From Chlamydiales bacterium (GTDB lineage Bacteria > Chlamydiota > Chlamydiia > Chlamydiales > FEN-1388): a DNA stretch of 64,000 bases. Below, piece by piece: positions 12,814 through 44,753 of this stretch (position 1 is the first letter of the stretch; each line of letters opens with the position of its first letter). The notes beneath the pieces are model-generated. The model searched no databases. It was not told the DNA's origin and saw nothing but the letters and a program-made list of their open reading frames with translations. Where the stretch lies: positions 32,129 to 96,128 of the forward strand of contig JBGSSB010000042.1 in NCBI GenBank assembly GCA_041737255.1, in the 5' to 3' direction. The position numbers and the translations under genes were made by a program.

Positions 12814-13890
12814 ATGCATTCAGAGGTGCTACTAAGTAGTCTACAGACACTAGCAAATGCAAGTATCAATGAACAAACAGGCCAGCCACATCTTGCTAGG
12901 CGTCTTACATGGCACGGCTATACTCTTACACAAGCCGTCTACCCATCAACGTTTATAACAGCAAACGATCTGCGTCTCTTTCTCGATAAAATAATAAATG
13001 CCATTTGCCGATTAGAGCATGAAAGGCCCTTTTTATTTTTCTCAGTGCGTCTTATCGAAGAAATGACTCCACTAGAAGAGAAAATAAAAAGAGTCTGTGA
13101 GTGGCTTGTAAATCCAGCGCACGCAAATGAAGGGGAGTACTTGCTTTTGCGTAATGTGCAAGAATCGATTCCTACACGATTAGCTCTTCTCGTGCAAAAT
13201 CAGGCTTTAGAAGTCCAAAGAAAAAATGCGTGGAATCTTCTTGAGAGCCCATGTACATTCCATCACTTTTCTCAAATTATTGGCGGCAAATTCAGACAAA
13301 GGCTAGAACAGGGAATCGACCCTAAAATGCCAACGTTTGCCTTCTTGGCAATAGCCTACGCCGCATGTGGCTTTCATTTTGGAATGTACAGGTATACCCA
13401 GCTTGTGACCTATATACAAAGCCTTGAACAGGTTGATCCCTTAAGCCGCGATATGATTTTGCTCGCTGTTATCCATAGAAATATTCTTCACGCACAGCTA
13501 CTGTTACACAATCCACAAAGCAATCAAGATGCTCTTCGTGAAGCTCTAAAAGATTTTTATAGAACACGAAAAACACTTTTAGAAAAACCGACTGGCAACA
13601 TTTTAAAGCAGATGGAAATTGATAGCTATTTGTTGTCATTGTTTGTAGATTTCAAACATGAAATTGCTGGTTTTGAAGTTGTAGACCACAAAGCACGTGC
13701 GGTATGTTTGTGCGTAGGACTTGAAGCGGCAAATGAGATGCAATTACTCGAATCATTTCAAAGATGTCACAATTTAGCGACTCTACACGAGGATGTACTA
13801 GACCCCTTCGAAGAACTAAACTCTCTGCAGCACGTAGGATACTTTCGATACTTCATGTTTCACACCGGCAACCTACCTAAGGGGACTTGA
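12814..13890 (+). CDS. Hypothetical protein
   Basis: 358-aa ORF with an ATG start. No motif recognised. Confidence 0.5.
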   Translation: MHSEVLLSSLQTLANASINEQTGQPHLARRLTWHGYTLTQAVYPSTFITANDLRLFLDKIINAICRLEHERPFLFFSVRLIEEMTPLEEKIKRVCEWLVNPAHANEGEYLLLRNVQESIPTRLALLVQNQALEVQRKNAWNLLESPCTFHHFSQIIGGKFRQRLEQGIDPKMPTFAFLAIAYAACGFHFGMYRYTQLVTYIQSLEQVDPLSRDMILLAVIHRNILHAQLLLHNPQSNQDALREALKDFYRTRKTLLEKPTGNILKQMEIDSYLLSLFVDFKHEIAGFEVVDHKARAVCLCVGLEAANEMQLLESFQRCHNLATLHEDVLDPFEELNSLQHVGYFRYFMFHTGNLPKGT

Positions 13891-13896
13891 TGTCAC

Positions 13897-13938
13897 AATC
13901 GGGGTCCAATCGGGGTCAGACCCGTTAATCCGTTAATC
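13897..13938 (+). repeat. REP-like end, orientation A
   Basis: aatcGGGGTCcaatcGGGGTCAGACCCGTTAATCCGTTAATC. Confidence 0.9.
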
Positions 13939-14108
13939 TTGGAATTTTTGGCCAATTACTCCATTATACGTCTCGGCAATAATGGGCCGGATATTTTTTT
14001 CTAAGAATCACACAGATATATCCATGTATTCTGGCTATCGCTACATGATCTATAACGTAAAGAAATAATAACCCAAAAATTGTGAACACGTGACCAATAG
14101 TGCAAAAA
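13939..14108 (+). pseudogene. Remnant of a REP-associated tyrosine transposase gene
   Basis: cggcaataatgggccggatatttttttc (13974-14001) matches the intact gene's cggcaataacggccaggatatttttttc (LRGNNGQDIFF). A later fragment translates to YIHVFWL versus YIHAFCL in the intact gene. Stops and deletions interrupt it. Confidence 0.7.
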
Positions 14109-14172
14109 GATTAACGGATTAACGGGTCTGACCCCAATATGACCCCAATATTGACCCCAATATATTGACCCC
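14109..14172 (-). repeat. REP-like end, orientation B, with four GACCCC iterons
   Basis: GATTAACGGATTAACGGGTCTGACCCCaatatGACCCCaatattGACCCCaatatattGACCCC. Confidence 0.9.
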
Positions 14173-14189
14173 TCATCTTTGGTTAGAGG

Positions 14190-15386
14190 CTAGCTAGATA
14201 AAATTTGACATGCTTTCATGCGTTGTCTCAGAGCAAATATAGCAGTAGTTGTTATTGCTATAAGTAGTATCGAGATTGCATATGTAGCATTAGTTATAGG
14301 AAAAAGCAAAAGAAGTGATCCTAAAAGAGCCGAAATACTAAATTGACCTGCTCCAAGAGCAGCTGCTGCTGTGCCCGCAATAGCTTCAAATGGCTCTAGG
14401 GCAGCAGATGCTGATCCGCCTATTATGAACATTGCACCCATGCAAGCAATAATCATAGGCAGCAAAAAGCCTGTCAAGCTAGATGCCGCCAACATATGCC
14501 AGGCAAGCATGCTACTTCCACCTATAAACATAAGAAGAATACCTACCTTAAGTGTAGGCAAAATTCCTATCTTTTCAAGAACCTTCCCACTGGCAAGGCC
14601 ACCTAAGCTAATAACACACCCAAAGAGCGCAAAATAATATCCAAACTCGTGTACCGGCACACCATGAAGTGTAATGATGATAAAGGGCGATACCGATAAA
14701 AAGCAAAAAAACACAGCTTCGGCAAGTCCTGTCATGGCTGCAAAAACCATAAACTTTGGATTACTAACAACAGCTTTGTAGCGACGAAAAAGAGACCAAT
14801 CAATCTTTACTTGATTTACAGTTGGCAGTGTTTCCTGAATAAAGCGTTTTGTAATAAAAAATGCGAAGATACCAATAGCCGAAAGAAAATAAAAAACACT
14901 TTGCCAGCCAAAAAAGAAATATAGGTATCCACCTAAAATAGGTGCTATAGTTGGAGATATCCCAATAGCTCCTTTTAGAAGACTATACATTTTAGCACTT
15001 TCGTCGTTAGAGTAAAGATCTCTTACCATGGCAAATGATGTGACAAGCATTCCACAAGCGCCAATAGAGGTGAGTACACGCGCCACAATTAGTTGGGCAA
15101 TATCCCCGGCATGTGCGCAACAAAGCGCACCAAACGCAAAAAAAAGCGCAGAGGCATAGAGGGTTGGCTTTCTCCCAAAGCGATCTGCTAGCGGCCCTAT
15201 AAAAAGCTGACCTAACCCTGTAATAAACAAAAATAGACTCATTGTAAGCTGGACGAGAGCAGGCGTAGTGTCAAATATTTCAATCATTTGCGGCAGCATT
15301 GGAATGTAGATATCCAAGCCAAAGGCGAAACTAAAAACAAAAGGCGTTAGAATAGCTACTAGCTGAAATTGAGAATATTTTTTCAT
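14190..15386 (-). CDS. MFS drug-resistance transporter, Bcr/CflA family (paralog 1)
   Basis: MFS motif A GPLADRFGRKP; 12 TM segments. Start set at MKKYSQFQLV (ATG 15384-15386). The track ORF's extra 40 N-terminal codons run through the REP end and are probably not coding. Confidence 0.85.
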   Translation of the reverse strand: MKKYSQFQLVAILTPFVFSFAFGLDIYIPMLPQMIEIFDTTPALVQLTMSLFLFITGLGQLFIGPLADRFGRKPTLYASALFFAFGALCCAHAGDIAQLIVARVLTSIGACGMLVTSFAMVRDLYSNDESAKMYSLLKGAIGISPTIAPILGGYLYFFFGWQSVFYFLSAIGIFAFFITKRFIQETLPTVNQVKIDWSLFRRYKAVVSNPKFMVFAAMTGLAEAVFFCFLSVSPFIIITLHGVPVHEFGYYFALFGCVISLGGLASGKVLEKIGILPTLKVGILLMFIGGSSMLAWHMLAASSLTGFLLPMIIACMGAMFIIGGSASAALEPFEAIAGTAAAALGAGQFSISALLGSLLLLFPITNATYAISILLIAITTTAIFALRQRMKACQILSS

Positions 15387-15443
15387 AGAAAAAGAGTATA
15401 GCTGCATGTCATTTGATAGGGTAGTCATAAATTGATTCATCAA

Positions 15444-15485
15444 AATCGGGGTCAAATCGGGGTCAGACCCGTCAATCCGGTAATC
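15444..15485 (+). repeat. REP-like end, orientation A
   Basis: aatcGGGGTCaaatcGGGGTCAGACCCGTCAATCCGGTAATC. Confidence 0.9.
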
Positions 15486-15553
15486 TTGAATATTGTTAGC
15501 CGGCAAGAAATTTTATATTTACGTTTATTCGTTAAATAAATAACCTCTACTCC

Positions 15554-16513
15554 ATGAGCAGAAAGCCTCGTATTCACAAACCAGCCGGCTTTTACCACGT
15601 TATGCTACGCGGCAATAACGGCCAGGATATTTTTTTCACAGAGTCAGACCGATATCGTTTTTGTCTCTTTCTGCAAGAGGGAACTCTACGATTTGGACAT
15701 TATATTCACGCATTCTGTTTAATGACGAACCACGTACATTTGGTAATTCAGCCAGGGATTACTCCCTTGTCGCAGATTGTAAAGCGCTTAGCTTCATGTT
15801 ATGCTATGTACATAAACCGGGTTCATGCAAGAATTGGTCATCTTTTTCAAGGCAGATTTAAAGCCATTCTTGTTGATGATAGTAAATACCTAGCAGAACT
15901 TATTCGCTATATTCATCTCAATCCTGTTCGTGCTGGAATGGTAAAAGCACCCGAAGGATATCTTTGGAGTAGCCACCAGACCTACTTAGGCCTTAACCAT
16001 ATCCCGTGGTTAACTCAAGAGACGCTTATGAAAAAATTCGATAATTCTGCCACTCATTCTGCTCGTAAATGCTATCTGGCCTTTATCAACGAGGGTATAG
16101 GGCTGCCTATACCCAAAGAAGTCTACTTGGGCTTTTATCGGGGAGCTATAGTAGGTGACAATAAATTTAGCGATGAAATAGCAAAGGCTGTTCGGCTAAG
16201 CGAAAAGCAAAATTCACAGCTAACAACAATCGACATCCTGAATCAAGTAGCTTCTCTGCTGGAAATTTCGGTTGCTGCCATGCAAAGCCGTGCCAAACAA
16301 TCCAGACTGGCCCAAGGCAGGGGGATAGCAGCTCTTATCACAAAAGAACATCCCGGGCTAACCATTCAGGCATTAGCAAACGAGCTCAATAAAGACCCAG
16401 ACGCGCTCTCTAAATCAGCCATTGCAGTAGAAACAATGGCAATTCAGGATGAAAAACTTAAAGAAGCAATTGACAAGATTCGGCAACAATTAGCGAAAGT
16501 GAGCCAAGATTAA
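15554..16513 (+). CDS. REP-associated tyrosine transposase (RAYT; IS200/IS605-like HUH Y1 transposase) with a C-terminal HTH-like extension
   Basis: 319 aa. HUH motif TNHVHLVIQP (HVH codons at 15731-15739). Catalytic-Tyr motif RYIHLNPVRAGMV, typical of COG1943/RayT. The C-terminal roughly 100 aa resemble a DnaA-C-like DNA-binding domain (unverified). The stop codon lies inside the right REP. Confidence 0.85.
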   Translation: MSRKPRIHKPAGFYHVMLRGNNGQDIFFTESDRYRFCLFLQEGTLRFGHYIHAFCLMTNHVHLVIQPGITPLSQIVKRLASCYAMYINRVHARIGHLFQGRFKAILVDDSKYLAELIRYIHLNPVRAGMVKAPEGYLWSSHQTYLGLNHIPWLTQETLMKKFDNSATHSARKCYLAFINEGIGLPIPKEVYLGFYRGAIVGDNKFSDEIAKAVRLSEKQNSQLTTIDILNQVASLLEISVAAMQSRAKQSRLAQGRGIAALITKEHPGLTIQALANELNKDPDALSKSAIAVETMAIQDEKLKEAIDKIRQQLAKVSQD

Positions 16514-16554
16514 CGGATTAACGGGTCTGACCCCTATCTATGACCCCTATCTAG
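16508..16554 (-). repeat. REP-like end, orientation B, with two GACCCC iterons
   Basis: GATTAACGGATTAACGGGTCTGACCCCtatctatGACCCCtatctag. Confidence 0.9.
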
Positions 16555-17737
16555 TCTCGCACCCTATCATACGAGGTCTTAGAGCAAATATAGCCGTAGT
16601 TGCTATTGCGATAAGTAGTATCGCAATTGCGTATGCAGCAGTAGTTACATCAAAGAGCAACAGTAGCGAGCCCAAAAGAGCCGATATACTAAATTGAATG
16701 GCTCCAAAAGCAGCTGCTGCAGTACCAGCAATAGCTCCAAATGGCTCTAAGGCAGCAGATGCTGATCCGCCTATTATAAACATTGCTCCCATGCAGGCAA
16801 TAATCATAGGCAGTAAAAAGCCAGTTAAACCAGGTGTGGCTACTATAGGCCAGCTTAGCATGATACAGCCACCTATAAACATAAGAAGAATGCCTATCTT
16901 CAGAGTAGGCAAAATTCCTATCTTTTCAAGTACCTTACCACTAGCAAGGCCACCCAAACCAATTACGCATCCAAAGAGCGCAAAATAGTAGCCAAACTCA
17001 TGAACCGGAACTCCATGAAGTGTAATGATGATAAAGGGCGATACCGAGAAAAAGCAAAAAAACACCGCTTCTGCAAGCCCTGTAATGGCTGTAAAAACCA
17101 TAAACTGGGGATTGCTCACAACCTCTAGGTATCGATTAAAAACAGAACTATTGATTCTTACTTGGTTTTCGATAGGCAATGTTTCTTGAATAAAGCGCTT
17201 TGTAATAAAAAATGCCAAGATGCCAATGGATGAGAGAAAATAAAAAACACTTTGCCAGCCAAAATAGAAGTAGAGGTAGCCACCCAAAATAGGCGCAAAG
17301 GTAGGGGAGATCCCAATAGCTCCATTTAGCAGGCTATACATTTTAGCGCTTTGTTCACTCGCGTAAAGATCTCTTACCATGGCAAATGATGTAACAAGCA
17401 TTCCGCAAGCACCAATGGAGGTGACAATACGGGCTACAATAAGTCCTGTAATATCTCCAGCATATGCACAACCAAGTGCGCCAACAGCAAAGCATAGCGC
17501 AGCGGTATAAAGTACTGGTTTTCGCCCAAAGCGGTCGGCTAGAGGTCCTATAAAAAGCTGCCCTAACCCTGTAAAGAGCAAAAAAAGACTCATTGTAAGC
17601 TGGATGAGGGCAGGCGTAGTATCAAATATTTTGATCATTTGAGGAAGCATTGGTATGTAAATATCCAAGCCAAACGCAAAACTAAAAACAAAAGGCGTAA
17701 GAATAGCTACAAGCTGAAACTGAGAATATTTTTTCAT
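16547..17737 (-). CDS. MFS drug-resistance transporter, Bcr/CflA family (paralog 2)
   Basis: Colinear with paralog 1 and highly similar by eye (most residues identical), with the same MKKYSQFQLV start. Its last codons and stop lie inside the REP(B) repeat. Confidence 0.85.
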   Translation of the reverse strand: MKKYSQFQLVAILTPFVFSFAFGLDIYIPMLPQMIKIFDTTPALIQLTMSLFLLFTGLGQLFIGPLADRFGRKPVLYTAALCFAVGALGCAYAGDITGLIVARIVTSIGACGMLVTSFAMVRDLYASEQSAKMYSLLNGAIGISPTFAPILGGYLYFYFGWQSVFYFLSSIGILAFFITKRFIQETLPIENQVRINSSVFNRYLEVVSNPQFMVFTAITGLAEAVFFCFFSVSPFIIITLHGVPVHEFGYYFALFGCVIGLGGLASGKVLEKIGILPTLKIGILLMFIGGCIMLSWPIVATPGLTGFLLPMIIACMGAMFIIGGSASAALEPFGAIAGTAAAAFGAIQFSISALLGSLLLLFDVTTAAYAIAILLIAIATTAIFALRPRMIGCETR

Positions 17738-17835
17738 GGAAAAGAGTATAGCTGAATACACTTTGAGGTGGTAGCTATAAATTTAATTTATCAAAGAAAC
17801 CCCATGACTGCTCACGAAAAGGTGTACTGCTTTGT

Positions 17836-39650: not shown

Positions 39651-41417
39651 ATGATTCCGGAGAAAACTTCACAAATGCAAACGGAAGAAGCGCTTGATCT
39701 TTTTCGGGCTCGAGAAGTCTTTCGAAGCGATCAAAAACTGAACGGACGCAAAGTTGAACCTAGAGTTTTACTAACTCTTGTGGGCAAAGGTCAAAATAGA
39801 CACCTTGAGGCTCGAGAAGACACCGTCTTTGAGCGTGTCAAAACACTTTTTTTTAGAAAAGATTATAAGCTGGAAGAAATTCAGACATTTCTTGAGCCAT
39901 CTACACATAGTGCTAAAGAAATCATCGCCTCTAAAATCACGAACCGTGATCACAACCCCAAAAAAAATATAATACAACGGATTTTCGAAGCAATAATTGC
40001 GCGTGGCGAAAAAAATGAATCTACCCCACAAAAGCCCACTAACACACAATCCAAGTCTGAAATAGTCCCACCAAAAGAAGACGCTGACGAAGTAACAACT
40101 CTTATTGAAATGCTTACGAATATTAAAATTTCAAACCGCGAAGAGCTTGTGCCCTATCAAGCACAACTTGAACAACTCGAAAAACAATACCCGAAACGAT
40201 CTGAAGACATACAAGTAGCAAAGCAAATCGTAACTGAAATTGCACACTCGCTACAAAATGTTCAAGTAGACGCACCACCAGCTAACGCTACATATGGAAT
40301 AGTTAATCCAGGACTCAATGCCTGCTTTTTAAATGCAACGCTTCAGGGTCTTGGCAGATCTCCAGTATTTCTTAACCTACTGCATGAGCGTCAAAAAGAG
40401 CTCACAACACTCCTCGAAGAAGTTTTTAAAAGAGAAGATCTTGCCCAAGATATAGACTATTTTGCAGATGACATATACGATCTCTCAAAACAAAATCTTG
40501 ATGATTCTGATGACTATCTCCAAGGCAACAGACTTAATGATGAAGGCAAACTCTTTGTCCAGCTCGTTATTGTAACCAAGCTCTGCGAAATTTATGAGCA
40601 GATACAATCAAACACTATTGATCTTGATACAATCCAAACCCTTCGTTCACTTATCATTGCCACTGGCTTTAGAGAACGGGACACAAGCCTCTATAGCCAA
40701 GAAGATGCGGGCATGCTTTGCATGCACCTTCTTGATAGCATTGGAATACAACCTTTCACCTATAAAATGAACATTGCCTACCCAGCAAGCTTTCCAATAC
40801 CCGCACTTGATAGACAGGGTGACGTAGCCAACATCTACCCTATTCAGCTAGCTAACGCCAAAGCAGGAGCCTCTATACAAGATCTTGTACGAGATACTAT
40901 AGTTGAGGAAGAGGTAGACAAAAAGGCGATAATAGATTCAAAACAAATACTTACACGCAAACAAAAAGAACAAATTAAAGCACTACCTAAAGAATCAACT
41001 ATCACAACCTTGCAGTCAATAGCCTTTCCTAAGGGAAAAGAGCCCAAAATGCTTCCTTTATGGCTGAAACGCTACACCGCTACTGGAGAAAAAATAACTA
41101 CGAAGATTACACCTTCATACTCTCTTGATTTCCCTTTGGCAGGAAAGAACGATCAGATGGCTCGTTACCGCCTTGTTGCTGTAGCCGTTCACGAAGGAAC
41201 AACGTTAAAAAAAGGCCATTTTTACACCTACGCACCTGTTGTTGACACACAAGACCAAGCCAGCTGGGTTTGCTACAACGACTCTAGCGTCACTGCTTCA
41301 CCTAATAAAACGTCATTTGACGCAGTAGCAGAAAAAGGCTACATCTACTACTACGAATTTGTAGAATACGTAAAAATAGGCACGCCTACACCTAACATTG
41401 ACTTAGCAAAAGATTAA
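39651..41417 (+). CDS. Eukaryotic-type ubiquitin-specific protease (USP/UCH family C19 deubiquitinase)
   Basis: 588 aa. Cys box GIVNPGLNACFLNATLQGL (Cys codon at 40323-40325). His box YRLVAVAVHEGTTLKKGHFYTYA, followed by WVCYNDSSV. Confidence 0.8.
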   Translation: MIPEKTSQMQTEEALDLFRAREVFRSDQKLNGRKVEPRVLLTLVGKGQNRHLEAREDTVFERVKTLFFRKDYKLEEIQTFLEPSTHSAKEIIASKITNRDHNPKKNIIQRIFEAIIARGEKNESTPQKPTNTQSKSEIVPPKEDADEVTTLIEMLTNIKISNREELVPYQAQLEQLEKQYPKRSEDIQVAKQIVTEIAHSLQNVQVDAPPANATYGIVNPGLNACFLNATLQGLGRSPVFLNLLHERQKELTTLLEEVFKREDLAQDIDYFADDIYDLSKQNLDDSDDYLQGNRLNDEGKLFVQLVIVTKLCEIYEQIQSNTIDLDTIQTLRSLIIATGFRERDTSLYSQEDAGMLCMHLLDSIGIQPFTYKMNIAYPASFPIPALDRQGDVANIYPIQLANAKAGASIQDLVRDTIVEEEVDKKAIIDSKQILTRKQKEQIKALPKESTITTLQSIAFPKGKEPKMLPLWLKRYTATGEKITTKITPSYSLDFPLAGKNDQMARYRLVAVAVHEGTTLKKGHFYTYAPVVDTQDQASWVCYNDSSVTASPNKTSFDAVAEKGYIYYYEFVEYVKIGTPTPNIDLAKD

Positions 41418-42603: not shown

Positions 42604-42666
42604 AAATCTTTCATTAAGATTTTTTGGCGGGGGTCAGAGCTGGCGTGAAACAAATGTTATTTAATT

Positions 42667-42756
42667 TTTACCGCAGAGAAAACAGCCGAGAACTCAGAGA
42701 AGAGCCCTGAGAGGTATTGTTTTCTCCGCGTTCTCGGCTGCTTTCTCCGCGGTAAA
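42667..42756. repeat. Imperfect 27-bp inverted repeat pair (palindromic element A)
   Basis: TTTACCGCAGAGAAAACAGCCGAGAAC (42667-42693) versus GTTCTCGGCTGCTTTCTCCGCGGTAAA (42730-42756). Two transition mismatches and a 36-nt spacer. Confidence 0.85.
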
Positions 42757-42787
42757 TAATATTTTCATGGCTATTTCGAAAATCTAG

Positions 42788-43040
42788 TCCTGTTTTCCCC
42801 GCGGTAGCGGGGGCAGTGGGTAGCCCCGCGTGAATTGGAAGGGCTGGGACCTGAAATGGAACGTGGGGTTGAAGCATATTATAACCATGGAGCTGTGGTA
42901 GCAGCGATACTTTAGTGTGTCGCTGCTACCGCAGCTCTTGTATTTTTCATCATACAACCCCACGTTCCACTACAGACCGACTGGCCTTTCATTGCACGCA
43001 GGGCTAATAAATCCTCCCGCTACCGCGGGGAAAACAAAAC
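42788..43040. repeat. Roughly 250-bp foldback palindrome (element B), centred near 42913
   Basis: Matched arm blocks: GTTTTCCCCGCGGTAGCGGG (42792-42811) with CCCGCTACCGCGGGGAAAAC (43016-43035); TGGAACGTGGGGTTG with CAACCCCACGTTCCA; GAGCTGTGGTAGCAGCGATAC with GTGTCGCTGCTACCGCAGCTC. Confidence 0.85.
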
Positions 43041-43061
43041 GGAATTTAGCAGAGGCACCAA

Positions 43062-43104
43062 GATTAACGGATTGACGGGTCTGACCCCCATGCGTGACCC
43101 CAAT
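43062..43104 (-). repeat. Solo REP-like end, orientation B
   Basis: GATTAACGGATTGACGGGTCTGACCCCcatgcgtGACCCCaatgcg. Same core as the RAYT ends about 27 kb away. Confidence 0.85.
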
Positions 43105-43793: not shown

Positions 43794-44753
43794 ATGATTT
43801 ATAAGTCAGTTTTGCTAATCACATGTGTGAGTTTAGTTTCTGGTTGTGCAACAGTTGCAAAACAGTCACAAGCAGTAGAACCTCCAGTTTCACAGCAGCA
43901 GCAAATAGAGGCGCAGCAGCACGCCCAGTTGCCACAGATGAAAAAATACAAGCAAAAAATTGTAATTGGCCGTTTTACGAACGAAACCAATTATGGCAAG
44001 GTTTTACTCACTGATCAAAATTACGACCCCATCGGAAAGCAGGCCAGTGACATGTTATCTACCCGTTTGATACAGTCTGGTCGCTTTCTTGTTTTTGAGC
44101 GACCTGATTTAAATAAAATTGAAGCCGAACAAAAAATACTAAATCAAAATGATTTGGTTGGAGCTGACACAGTTATTTTAGGTTCAGTTACTGAATTTGG
44201 ACGTTCTGTAACAGGAAAAAAAGGCTTCCTATCCGACACCAAACTACAAACCGCCAAAGCTAAAGTTGAAATTCGACTTGTTGACACCAAAACTGGCTTG
44301 GCATTCTTTTCAACAACCGGTGCAGGCCAAGCTACAACAGAATCTGGGGACGTTTTAGGCTTTGGAAGCAGGGCGGCCTACGATGCCACACTTAATGACA
44401 AGGTTATTGCAGCTGCAATATCTGACTTAATTAACAATTTGATAGTGACACTTCAGAATCGCCCCTGGACAACCGATATATTAGAAATTCAAGCAAATCA
44501 GGTGTTTATTAGCGGCGGAAAAAGCCAAGGAATAAAAGAAGGCGATGTGCTTCAGATTTTAAAAAAAGTAAATTCAGTTAAAAGTCAGCAGTCAGGTTTT
44601 ATGATAGATTTACCACCTGAAAAGGTTGCCACGATCAAGATTATAAGTTTTTTTGGCAACAGCGAAACAAACGAAGGATCCGTCGCTGAGATTATAGATG
44701 GAACACTGGATGCACAAACTGTAGACAAATATATTGTAAAAGAGGTCGAGTAA
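43794..44753 (+). CDS. CsgG-family lipoprotein (curli-type secretion channel homolog) with a C-terminal extension
   Basis: 319 aa. Lipobox LVSGC. CsgG-like core (IVIGRFTNET..., LIQSGRFLVFERPDL..., ILGSVTEFG...) plus an extra C-terminal domain of about 80 aa. Confidence 0.75.
   Translation: MIYKSVLLITCVSLVSGCATVAKQSQAVEPPVSQQQQIEAQQHAQLPQMKKYKQKIVIGRFTNETNYGKVLLTDQNYDPIGKQASDMLSTRLIQSGRFLVFERPDLNKIEAEQKILNQNDLVGADTVILGSVTEFGRSVTGKKGFLSDTKLQTAKAKVEIRLVDTKTGLAFFSTTGAGQATTESGDVLGFGSRAAYDATLNDKVIAAAISDLINNLIVTLQNRPWTTDILEIQANQVFISGGKSQGIKEGDVLQILKKVNSVKSQQSGFMIDLPPEKVATIKIISFFGNSETNEGSVAEIIDGTLDAQTVDKYIVKEVE

Follow-up and report, generated by a model that had tools for sequence, protein, structure and literature searches.

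A probable TIRtron with modular ends and flanking tandem duplications in an environmental chlamydial genome

A gene for a Y1 tyrosine transposase lying between inverted ends in a chlamydial genome raises the question of the class of element to which it belongs. The gene, tnpA, occupies element B (about 15444-16547) of the window, that is, of the whole 64,000-nucleotide stretch of DNA analysed here (Chlamydiales bacterium, assembly GCA_041737255.1, contig JBGSSB010000042.1). The original prediction recognized in it the classic architecture of a REP-associated tyrosine transposase (RAYT) between inverted repetitive extragenic palindromes (REPs). Element B is probably a TIRtron, a low-copy unit resembling an insertion sequence (IS) in which one TIRYT gene is placed between 30-bp terminal inverted repeats (TIRs). 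This degree of confidence is attached to the explanation as a whole, comprising the TIRtron identity, the inferred mechanism and the history of the element in the window.

The name TIRYT was given to RAYT-like genes with flanking terminal inverted repeats, and the corresponding units were called TIRtrons (Di Nocera, De Gregorio and Rocco 2013, BMC Genomics 14:522, PMC3733652). According to that article, GGGGWSAS is the common TIR motif of TIRYTs and represents their main TIR type. Most TIRYTs fall into TnpA_Y1 subclass 2.1, which has been equated with RAYT group 1 and is present in 14.9% of bacterial strains (Quentin, Siguier, Chandler and Fichant 2018, PMC6006769). The C-terminal helix-turn-helix (HTH) of the class is Bac_DnaA_C, HTH_23 or HTH_28, group 2.1.2 having a Bac_DnaA_C-like C-terminus (PMC6006769). 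RAYT group 1 has been described as the largest of the RAYT groups and the one closest to insertion sequences in character; near-identical duplicates make up 6.3% of it, and 1.2% of its members are plasmid-borne (Bertels, Gallie and Rainey 2017, PMC5581495). TIRYT, RAYT group 1 and TnpA_Y1 subclass 2.1.2 are synonyms for one class. Element B is assigned to it by the published descriptions of the groups, on the basis of domain architecture, homology to about 7000 proteins of the same architecture and the TIR motif.

The 319-aa open reading frame (ORF) contains the motifs NHVHLVI and YIHLNPVRAGMV. The Y1 HUH domain extends over residues ~1-150 and includes the RAYT-type motifs H60-V-H62 and Y119IHLNP (catalytic pattern H60, H62, Y119-x3-N123-P124); a low-confidence linker separates it from an HTH similar to DnaA domain IV at residues ~213-319. 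The original prediction had proposed searches with hidden Markov models of Y1_Tnp and of the DnaA C-terminal domain. Pfam Y1_Tnp was matched with 47.1 bits at a cut-off of 23. Bac_DnaA_C was matched by the single sequence with 23.4 bits (E = 6e-5), below the cut-off of 31.5, and the DnaA type is in agreement with both profile and structure: the family profile (an alignment of 23 members) retrieved DnaA DNA-binding domains from the PDB with E = 8e-10, and the predicted C-terminal domain superimposes on the Mycobacterium tuberculosis DnaA DNA-binding domain with a template-modelling (TM) score of 0.90-0.92 and a root-mean-square deviation (rmsd) of 1.3 Å. In the same alignment, all family-invariant residues are retained, including H60, H62, Y119, N123 and P124. 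With Escherichia coli TnpA_REP (PDB 4ER8), the N-terminal half can be aligned in register, though weakly, and this structure is also the top match of the AlphaFold model in a structure search (TM 0.74 of target); the model has a mean predicted local distance difference test (pLDDT) score of 76, with linker residues 151-220 disordered. Thus, the earlier identification of the protein as a member of the HUH/Y1 RAYT (TnpA_REP) superfamily with a C-terminal HTH-like domain was correct. Judged from its sequence and its structural model, the protein is an intact two-domain enzyme consisting of a RAYT-class Y1 nuclease and a DnaA-domain-IV-like HTH. Database searching revealed more than 7000 homologues of 311-325 aa, most of them with Y1_Tnp and Bac_DnaA_C; some carry the name 'REP element-mobilizing transposase RayT' and others are named transposase. 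The nearest TIRYT homologue in the databases is only 56% identical.

The ends of element B are inverted copies of one another, as the original prediction stated. The left end GGGGTCAGACCCGTCAATCCGGTAATC (15459-15485) and the right end GATTAACGGATTAACGGGTCTGACCCC (16508-16534) are complementary at 25 of 27 positions, and the full 30-bp repeats at 28 of 30; the stop codon of tnpA and its last two codons fall within the right TIR. The 20-mer GGGGTCAGACCCGTYAATCC has five exact copies in the window (13912+, 14116-, 15459+, 16515- and 43069-), distributed over two loci, with 0.00 matches expected from dinucleotide-preserving shuffles. The inner part of the TIR, CCGTTAATCCGTTAATCTT, is found at the same five sites and at no others in the window. 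Three of these ends had been listed before at 13897, 14109 and 43062, positions that are correct to within the outer sub-repeats. The outer end GGGGTCAG is present at all five ends and fits GGGGWSAS.

Properties of REPs were not found at these ends. Folded as single strands, the five ends are no better than shuffles (z from -1.4 to +0.2), and the GTAG and CGTC tags are absent from them. Rfam gave no match at the ends, and a promoter and terminator scan around element B found no more sites than in shuffled sequence. Since the GTAG tag is missing and folding does not exceed that of shuffles, the classic arrangement of a RAYT between REPs is not supported, and the unit, with its TIRs starting in GGGGTCAG, is to be filed as a TIRtron. 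A target-site duplication was not found either: the outermost bases that match at both ends do so in inverted orientation and therefore extend the TIR. Element B is an ordinary intact member of a published class, and it should be annotated as a TIRYT / RAYT group 1 unit and not as a REP system.

The anatomy of the ends was compared across 80 metagenomic loci with homologues at 30-57% identity and the five closest-relative loci. At about 60 homologous loci, nearly all genes lie between TIRs starting with (T)GGGGTCAGGC, the left TIR being typically located about 18-40 nt upstream of the ATG. Doubled 7-mers with a period of 7-8 directly follow this box at 36% of the ends, compared with 5.9% of control windows; examples are TGACATT, GAGTTATT and TTCGGTAA, each present twice. 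The TIR is therefore modular: an outer family-conserved box GGGGTCAG(G/A)C is followed by two tandem clade-specific boxes of ~8 bp. Boxes of the chlamydial clade are of the TGTTAATC / CGTTAATC / TGATAATC type, while another clade has, for example, the 8-mer TTGACATTTGACATT. The nearest relatives (51-56% identity) have GACC and TGTTAATC-type boxes in common. Position 12 is T in 96% of 112 ends and C in the window element. This C gives rise to the small palindrome GGGTCAGACCC, which is a peculiarity of the clade and not a REP feature. The GGGTC-A-GACCC core, considered as a REP-like hairpin, was rejected, being specific to the chlamydial clade and replaced elsewhere by the non-palindromic GGGGTCAGGC. 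What the original prediction regarded as novel, a different REP sequence and an extra HTH, proved to be typical of the family, in which ~60 metagenomic homologues share the same end design.

The left but not the right TIR ends in a perfect TTGACA in many family members (e.g., loci L028, L064, L073, L077, L043, L063 and L071), a sequence resembling a built-in tnpA -35 box. In the window element, TTGAAT takes its place, and a convincing -10 box was not identified.

All five ends in the window carry one to three extra tandem units just outside the TIR. Such a unit, termed here a stutter, is composed of a few flank bases and GGGGTCA. The same structure was found in the Chlamydiales metagenome-assembled genome (MAG) L003 and at the left end of locus L091. 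The spacer is constant within an end and differs between ends, and the units therefore arose in place. Tandem duplications spanning the junction of flank and TIR (period of at least 8, no more than one mismatch, controls taken from the same loci) were detected at 31 of 123 ends (25%), as against 69 of 4000 random positions (1.7%; binomial p ~5e-27). The inner breakpoint has its peak at TIR position 7 (GGGGTCA|G), with which 12 ends are compatible; further breakpoints cluster at positions 1-2 and at the whole TIR. On the complementary strand, position 7 corresponds to C|T in 5'-G(N)C|TGACCCC-3', and the outer boundary is usually C|A. These two dinucleotides are those cut by the characterised TnpA_REP enzymes, which remain linked to the 5' base (PMC8266576).

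Larger duplications were also observed at the ends of the closest relatives. In L090 (~2660-2740), the whole right TIR and the flank ATATA are duplicated in tandem, and L087 (1-80) has two left-TIR copies 52 nt apart. The L087 contigs end at the outer TIR copy, which suggests an assembly break at the repeat.

A mechanism that could leave such duplications is tentatively proposed. The Y1 domain would act on the invariant box, and the DnaA-like HTH would read the doubled boxes. By binding the doubled 8-mers on duplex DNA (predicted target CGTTAATCCGTTAATC), the HTH domain would position the Y1 domain on the conserved box, where it would nick 5'-...GGGTC|TGACCCC-flank-3' at C|T. The enzyme would be covalently kept on the 5' T, like other TnpA_REP enzymes, with the 3'-OH left on the element side. 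Given the inverted orientation of the ends, each strand of the element would have its 3' end freed by such a cut. A polymerase would then extend the 3'-OH outward, displacing the protein-linked strand, and resealing of the displaced strand would leave a tandem unit consisting of TGACCCC and a prefix of the flank, that is, the stutter. The stutter would in this case be the footprint of abortive cycles of nicking, extension and resealing that maps the C|T site, and the ends would combine a catalytic box with a doubled 8-mer read by the HTH. These two claims taken together are plausible, although the chance that they hold jointly is put somewhat below even. As far as the literature search shows, neither the stutter footprint nor the two-module design of the ends has been reported before. 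Reading of the doubled boxes by the HTH would explain an observation that puzzled Quentin et al. (PMC6006769), namely that GGGGWSAS does not resemble the DnaA box.

Several observations weigh against this mechanism. Both the cleavage site and its strand are deduced from duplication breakpoints, and position 6 (C|A, top strand) fits 9 ends, against the 12 fitted by position 7. The rule that the unit contains a prefix of the flank is obeyed by five of six chlamydial ends, the exception being the right-end array of element A, a second copy in the window described below; filler bases occur in some stutter arrays. The 8-mers are unlike DnaA boxes, and their binding by the HTH is a prediction. The published experimental activity concerns RAYT groups 2 and 3 only and includes no TIRYT (PMC8266576). 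Replication slippage at a protein-bound site is an alternative source of the stutter.

The history of the element can be followed in the neighbourhood of element B. The segment 13887-17796 is a two-unit tandem array, each unit consisting of a TIRYT element and a gene for a Bcr/CflA-type transporter of the major facilitator superfamily (MFS), and the border of the tandem units falls on the left end of the element. Element A, a decayed and internally deleted relative of B, lies beside MFS1 in the same arrangement as B beside MFS2. The DNA of MFS1 and MFS2 is 84% identical at an offset that stays at 2351 nt throughout, a similar sequence of ~14 nt is found at both outer borders and at the junction of the units, and a flank-derived spacer is common to the left ends of A and B. 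On these sequence grounds, A and B are paralogues that arose by tandem duplication of the unit of element and MFS gene. The tnpA remnant of A is 77% identical in nucleotides to that of B (13956-14019 against 15592-15655). Since the 13912/14116 pair of ends encloses this remnant, it represents a decayed element and not a REPIN. The pair was rejected as evidence of transposition, being explained by the tandem duplication. Between A and B, TIR identity reaches 92% (58/63), compared with 75-77% for adjacent non-coding DNA and 84% for the MFS coding sequence (binomial P = 0.0009 when tested on the non-coding rate and 0.04 when tested on the coding rate). The better preservation of the TIRs relative to neighbouring DNA suggests that the ends remain under constraint.

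The outermost GACCCC stutter unit contributes its last C to the stop codon of MFS2 (16547-16549), which is completed by TA. The C-termini of the transporters differ, MFS2 ending in ..CETR* and MFS1 in ..CQILSS*, and the element is 17 nt further from the stop in MFS1.

Element C is the only dispersed copy in the window, located 27 kb away with different flanks. It has a complete right TIR with one stutter unit and no tnpA gene. Its candidate degenerate left end retains the conserved box GGGGTCAGAG without 8-mers; for this 9-mer, in the right orientation and within ~500 nt, the chance expectation is estimated at roughly 0.002. The interior of element C contains two long imperfect hairpins, with 40-nt arms in 42662-42761 and 63-nt arms in 42780-43047, and Rfam gave no match in this hairpin-rich interior. 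A block of ~90 nt (42955-43040, CGTTCCAYTACAG...GGCCTTTCATTGCAC...) is conserved beside the solo TIR of the Chlamydiales MAG (L003, 60-170). The interior may belong to a distinct family of palindromic repeats or form the body of a non-autonomous element. An ORF at 43794-44753, likewise of 319 aa, was rejected as a second transposase and encodes a CsgG-like lipoprotein.

Past mobility of the element is likely. The history would comprise one ancient insertion beside an MFS gene, copying by tandem segmental duplication and subsequent decay of copy A; the element may now be dormant. Evidence to the contrary should be set beside this. No second intact copy was found in the 64-kb window, and no empty site emerged from the comparison with MFS relatives (71-83% MFS identity), in which the element is missing and the only MFS gene has other neighbours. 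A target duplication was not found in the 64 kb either, and transposition in this genome is therefore a presumption. The earlier suggestion that the family was active in this genome is accordingly only weakly supported: copy A came from tandem duplication, and the defective element C is the only dispersed copy.

The same facts bear on the strongest alternative, in which the TIRYT is domesticated and immobile, retained by the host as a nicking and DNA-binding factor, the TIRs being its fixed binding or cleavage sites and the extra TIRs resulting from duplication and decay. Tandem duplication does account for A and B, the window has one intact gene only, and the base composition of the element equals that of the host. 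According to the literature, class 2 genes are generally low-copy and housekeeping-like. The TIRs of copy A, although it has decayed, are preserved better than neutral DNA would be. Against domestication stand element C, dispersed with different flanks, and the solo or defective TIRs with this sequence that L001 and L003, two other genomes, contain. No orthologue is present in the sister genomes, and group 1 is the most IS-like, with its 6.3% of duplicates and some plasmid members (PMC5581495). Domestication is thus unlikely, though it deserves more weight than the remaining alternatives.

A classic REPtron would be a single-copy domesticated RAYT between inverted REP hairpins that populate the genome as REPs or REPINs. 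REP_Tyr_transpos (NF047646) is indeed the top NCBIfam family for the protein, but its score of 63.3 bits is under the cut-off of 80. The Y---NP motif, the E. coli TnpA_REP as the closest solved structure, and the inverted ends with extra copies, including an inverted pair 166 nt apart, would also be expected of a REPtron. The tag and the stable stem-loop are absent, however, and the inverted pair is the one that encloses the tnpA pseudogene remnant. Related genomes have one exact copy of the motif each, and for subclass 2.1 its describers searched for REPs near the genes and found none (PMC6006769). The REPtron is very improbable. Least credible of all is an ordinary insertion sequence of the IS200/IS605 family, since Pfam Y1_Tnp and a fold resembling IS608 and ISDra2 TnpA are opposed by 13.7 bits with the NCBIfam IS200 model (NF033573; cut-off 55), a protein of 319 aa instead of about 130-150 aa with the class 2 Y---NP motif, true TIRs in place of same-orientation subterminal hairpins, and the absence of both a tnpB gene and identical extra copies.

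Table 1. Coordinates of the transposase gene, terminal repeats, stutter units and associated genes in the window
Feature	Position	Strand	Description
tnpA (TIRYT / RAYT group 1), 319 aa	15554-16513	+	Pfam, NCBIfam, alignment, structure
Left TIR of element B	15459-15488	+	Box GGGGTCAGACC (15459-15469), 8-mers CGTCAATC CGGTAATC (15470-15485), TTG
Right TIR of element B	16505-16534	-	On the minus strand: GGGGTCAGACC CGTTAATC CGTTAATC TTG
Left outer stutter of element B	15444-15458	+	AATCGGGGTCA, 4 nt of flank and first 7 nt of TIR
Right outer stutter of element B	16535-16547	-	TAGATAGGGGTCA, 6 nt of flank and first 7 nt of TIR
Element A	13897-14172	+	Decayed, internally deleted paralogue of B; TIRs, tnpA remnant
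Left stutter of element A	13897-13911		
Left TIR of element A	13912-13941		
tnpA N-terminal remnant of element A	13956-14040		50% aa identity to aa 14-41
Right TIR of element A	14107-14135		
Right stutter array of element A	14136-14172		Three extra GGGGTCA units
MFS1, Bcr/CflA-type MFS transporter	14190-15386	-	Tandem unit 1 (13887-15445)
MFS2, MFS1 paralogue	16547-17737	-	84% nt, 85% aa identity; tandem unit 2 (15432-17796)
Junction of tandem units	15432-15445	+	TTGATTCATCAAAA; similar at 13887-13898 and 17783-17796
Element C, right TIR and one stutter unit	43059-43101	-	Defective element; TIR 43059-43088
Stutter unit of element C	43089-43101		CGCATNGGGGTCA
Candidate degenerate left end of element C	42630-42639	+	Conserved box GGGGTCAGAG only

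The sequence supports a chlamydial host, in line with the earlier description of the genome as chlamydia-like. Leucyl-tRNA synthetase (LeuRS) has its nearest named relatives in Chlamydiia, Chlamydiales and Candidatus Protochlamydia at 66-67% identity. Sister genomes at 84-87% LeuRS identity exist, yet the best TIRYT homologue anywhere is the one of 56%. The nearest TIRYT relatives (51-56%) adjoin genes for CesT type III chaperones. When one genome per species was scanned for the 20-mer, no more than three loci were retrieved from other organisms; the Chlamydiales MAG L003 and the uncultured-bacterium MAG L001 each have one solo TIR with this sequence. No article that connects RAYTs or TIRYTs with Chlamydiae came up in the literature search, and the record of a TIRYT in this lineage may be new. 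The original prediction knew of no REP/RAYT system described for the lineage; the class itself had already been published, and the novelty claim was wrong.

In L001 (5150-5195), a truncated left core GGGTCAGA lies 2 nt from a complete right TIR, forming an almost empty element; its deletion ends at TIR positions 8-10, close to where the nick is proposed. Elsewhere in the window, 39651-41417 (+) encodes a protein of 588 aa whose ubiquitin C-terminal hydrolase (UCH) domain is of the eukaryotic type, in keeping with an amoeba-associated chlamydial lifestyle. The Rfam group II intron model D1-D4-2 matches 51563-51673 (-) with 44 bits, above the gathering score, in the spacer between genes for an AAA_14/DUF4143 ATPase (50352-51497) and a superoxide dismutase (51991-52740). 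With no adjacent reverse-transcriptase ORF, this match looks like an orphan intron fragment.

Element B adds a TIRYT record for an environmental chlamydial lineage to a class that about 15% of the bacterial strains sequenced possess (PMC6006769) and that forms the largest RAYT group. The modular ends and the stutter predict the strand and the dinucleotide that are cut and the duplex boxes that are bound. The stutter might also provide a way of detecting past enzyme activity in genomes from sequence alone. If true, the proposed mechanism would be the first mechanistic handle on RAYT group 1 / TIRYT.

Compared with the TIRYTs and TIRtrons of PMC3733652, the element of the window has the same RAYT-like Y1 gene with TIRs in place of REPs, the same GGGGWSAS outer motif (here GGGGTCAG), TIRs close to the gene, the right one overlapping its 3' end, and small families of solo or paired TIRs. 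It differs in its Chlamydiota host, apparently not among the examples published there, and in the box GGGGTCAGACCC, which makes a short palindrome owing to C at position 12, a position taken by T at almost all other ends. The passages of the article that were consulted mention neither doubled 8-mers nor a junction stutter. With subclass 2.1.2 / RAYT group 1, the element shares a long class 2 protein with Y---NP, the conserved W-S-S-H segment after the catalytic Tyr, a Bac_DnaA_C-like C-terminal HTH, the lack of REPs in the vicinity, a low number of copies and a patchy occurrence among taxa.

Likeness to the E. coli TnpA_REP/REPtron (PDB 4ER8; RAYT group 2) lies in the Y1 HUH fold with aligned HUH and Tyr motifs and, presumably, in C|T cleavage and the 5'-phosphotyrosine link. 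Unlike the window protein, TnpA_REP has 165 aa without an HTH domain, recognises GTAG-tagged REP hairpins in single-stranded DNA and is accompanied by hundreds of REPs and bacterial interspersed mosaic elements (BIMEs). The TnpA proteins of the IS200/IS605 family (IS608, ISDra2) have the same HUH/Y1 chemistry and fold. However, they are short, use subterminal hairpins and guide tetranucleotides, and perform strand-specific 'peel and paste' transposition of elements without terminal inverted repeats; the proposed freeing of both element 3' ends would moreover have another polarity than in IS200/IS605. As regards DnaA domain IV on DnaA boxes (PDB 3PVP, 1J1V), the C-terminal fold is the same (TM 0.9, rmsd 1.3 Å), and the domain is found beside tandem 8-bp repeats that could act as DnaA boxes. 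The 8-mers of the window (CGTTAATC) are nevertheless unlike TTATNCACA, and DHTTV, the segment through which DnaA contacts bases, has D-P-D-A-L-S in its place in the window protein.

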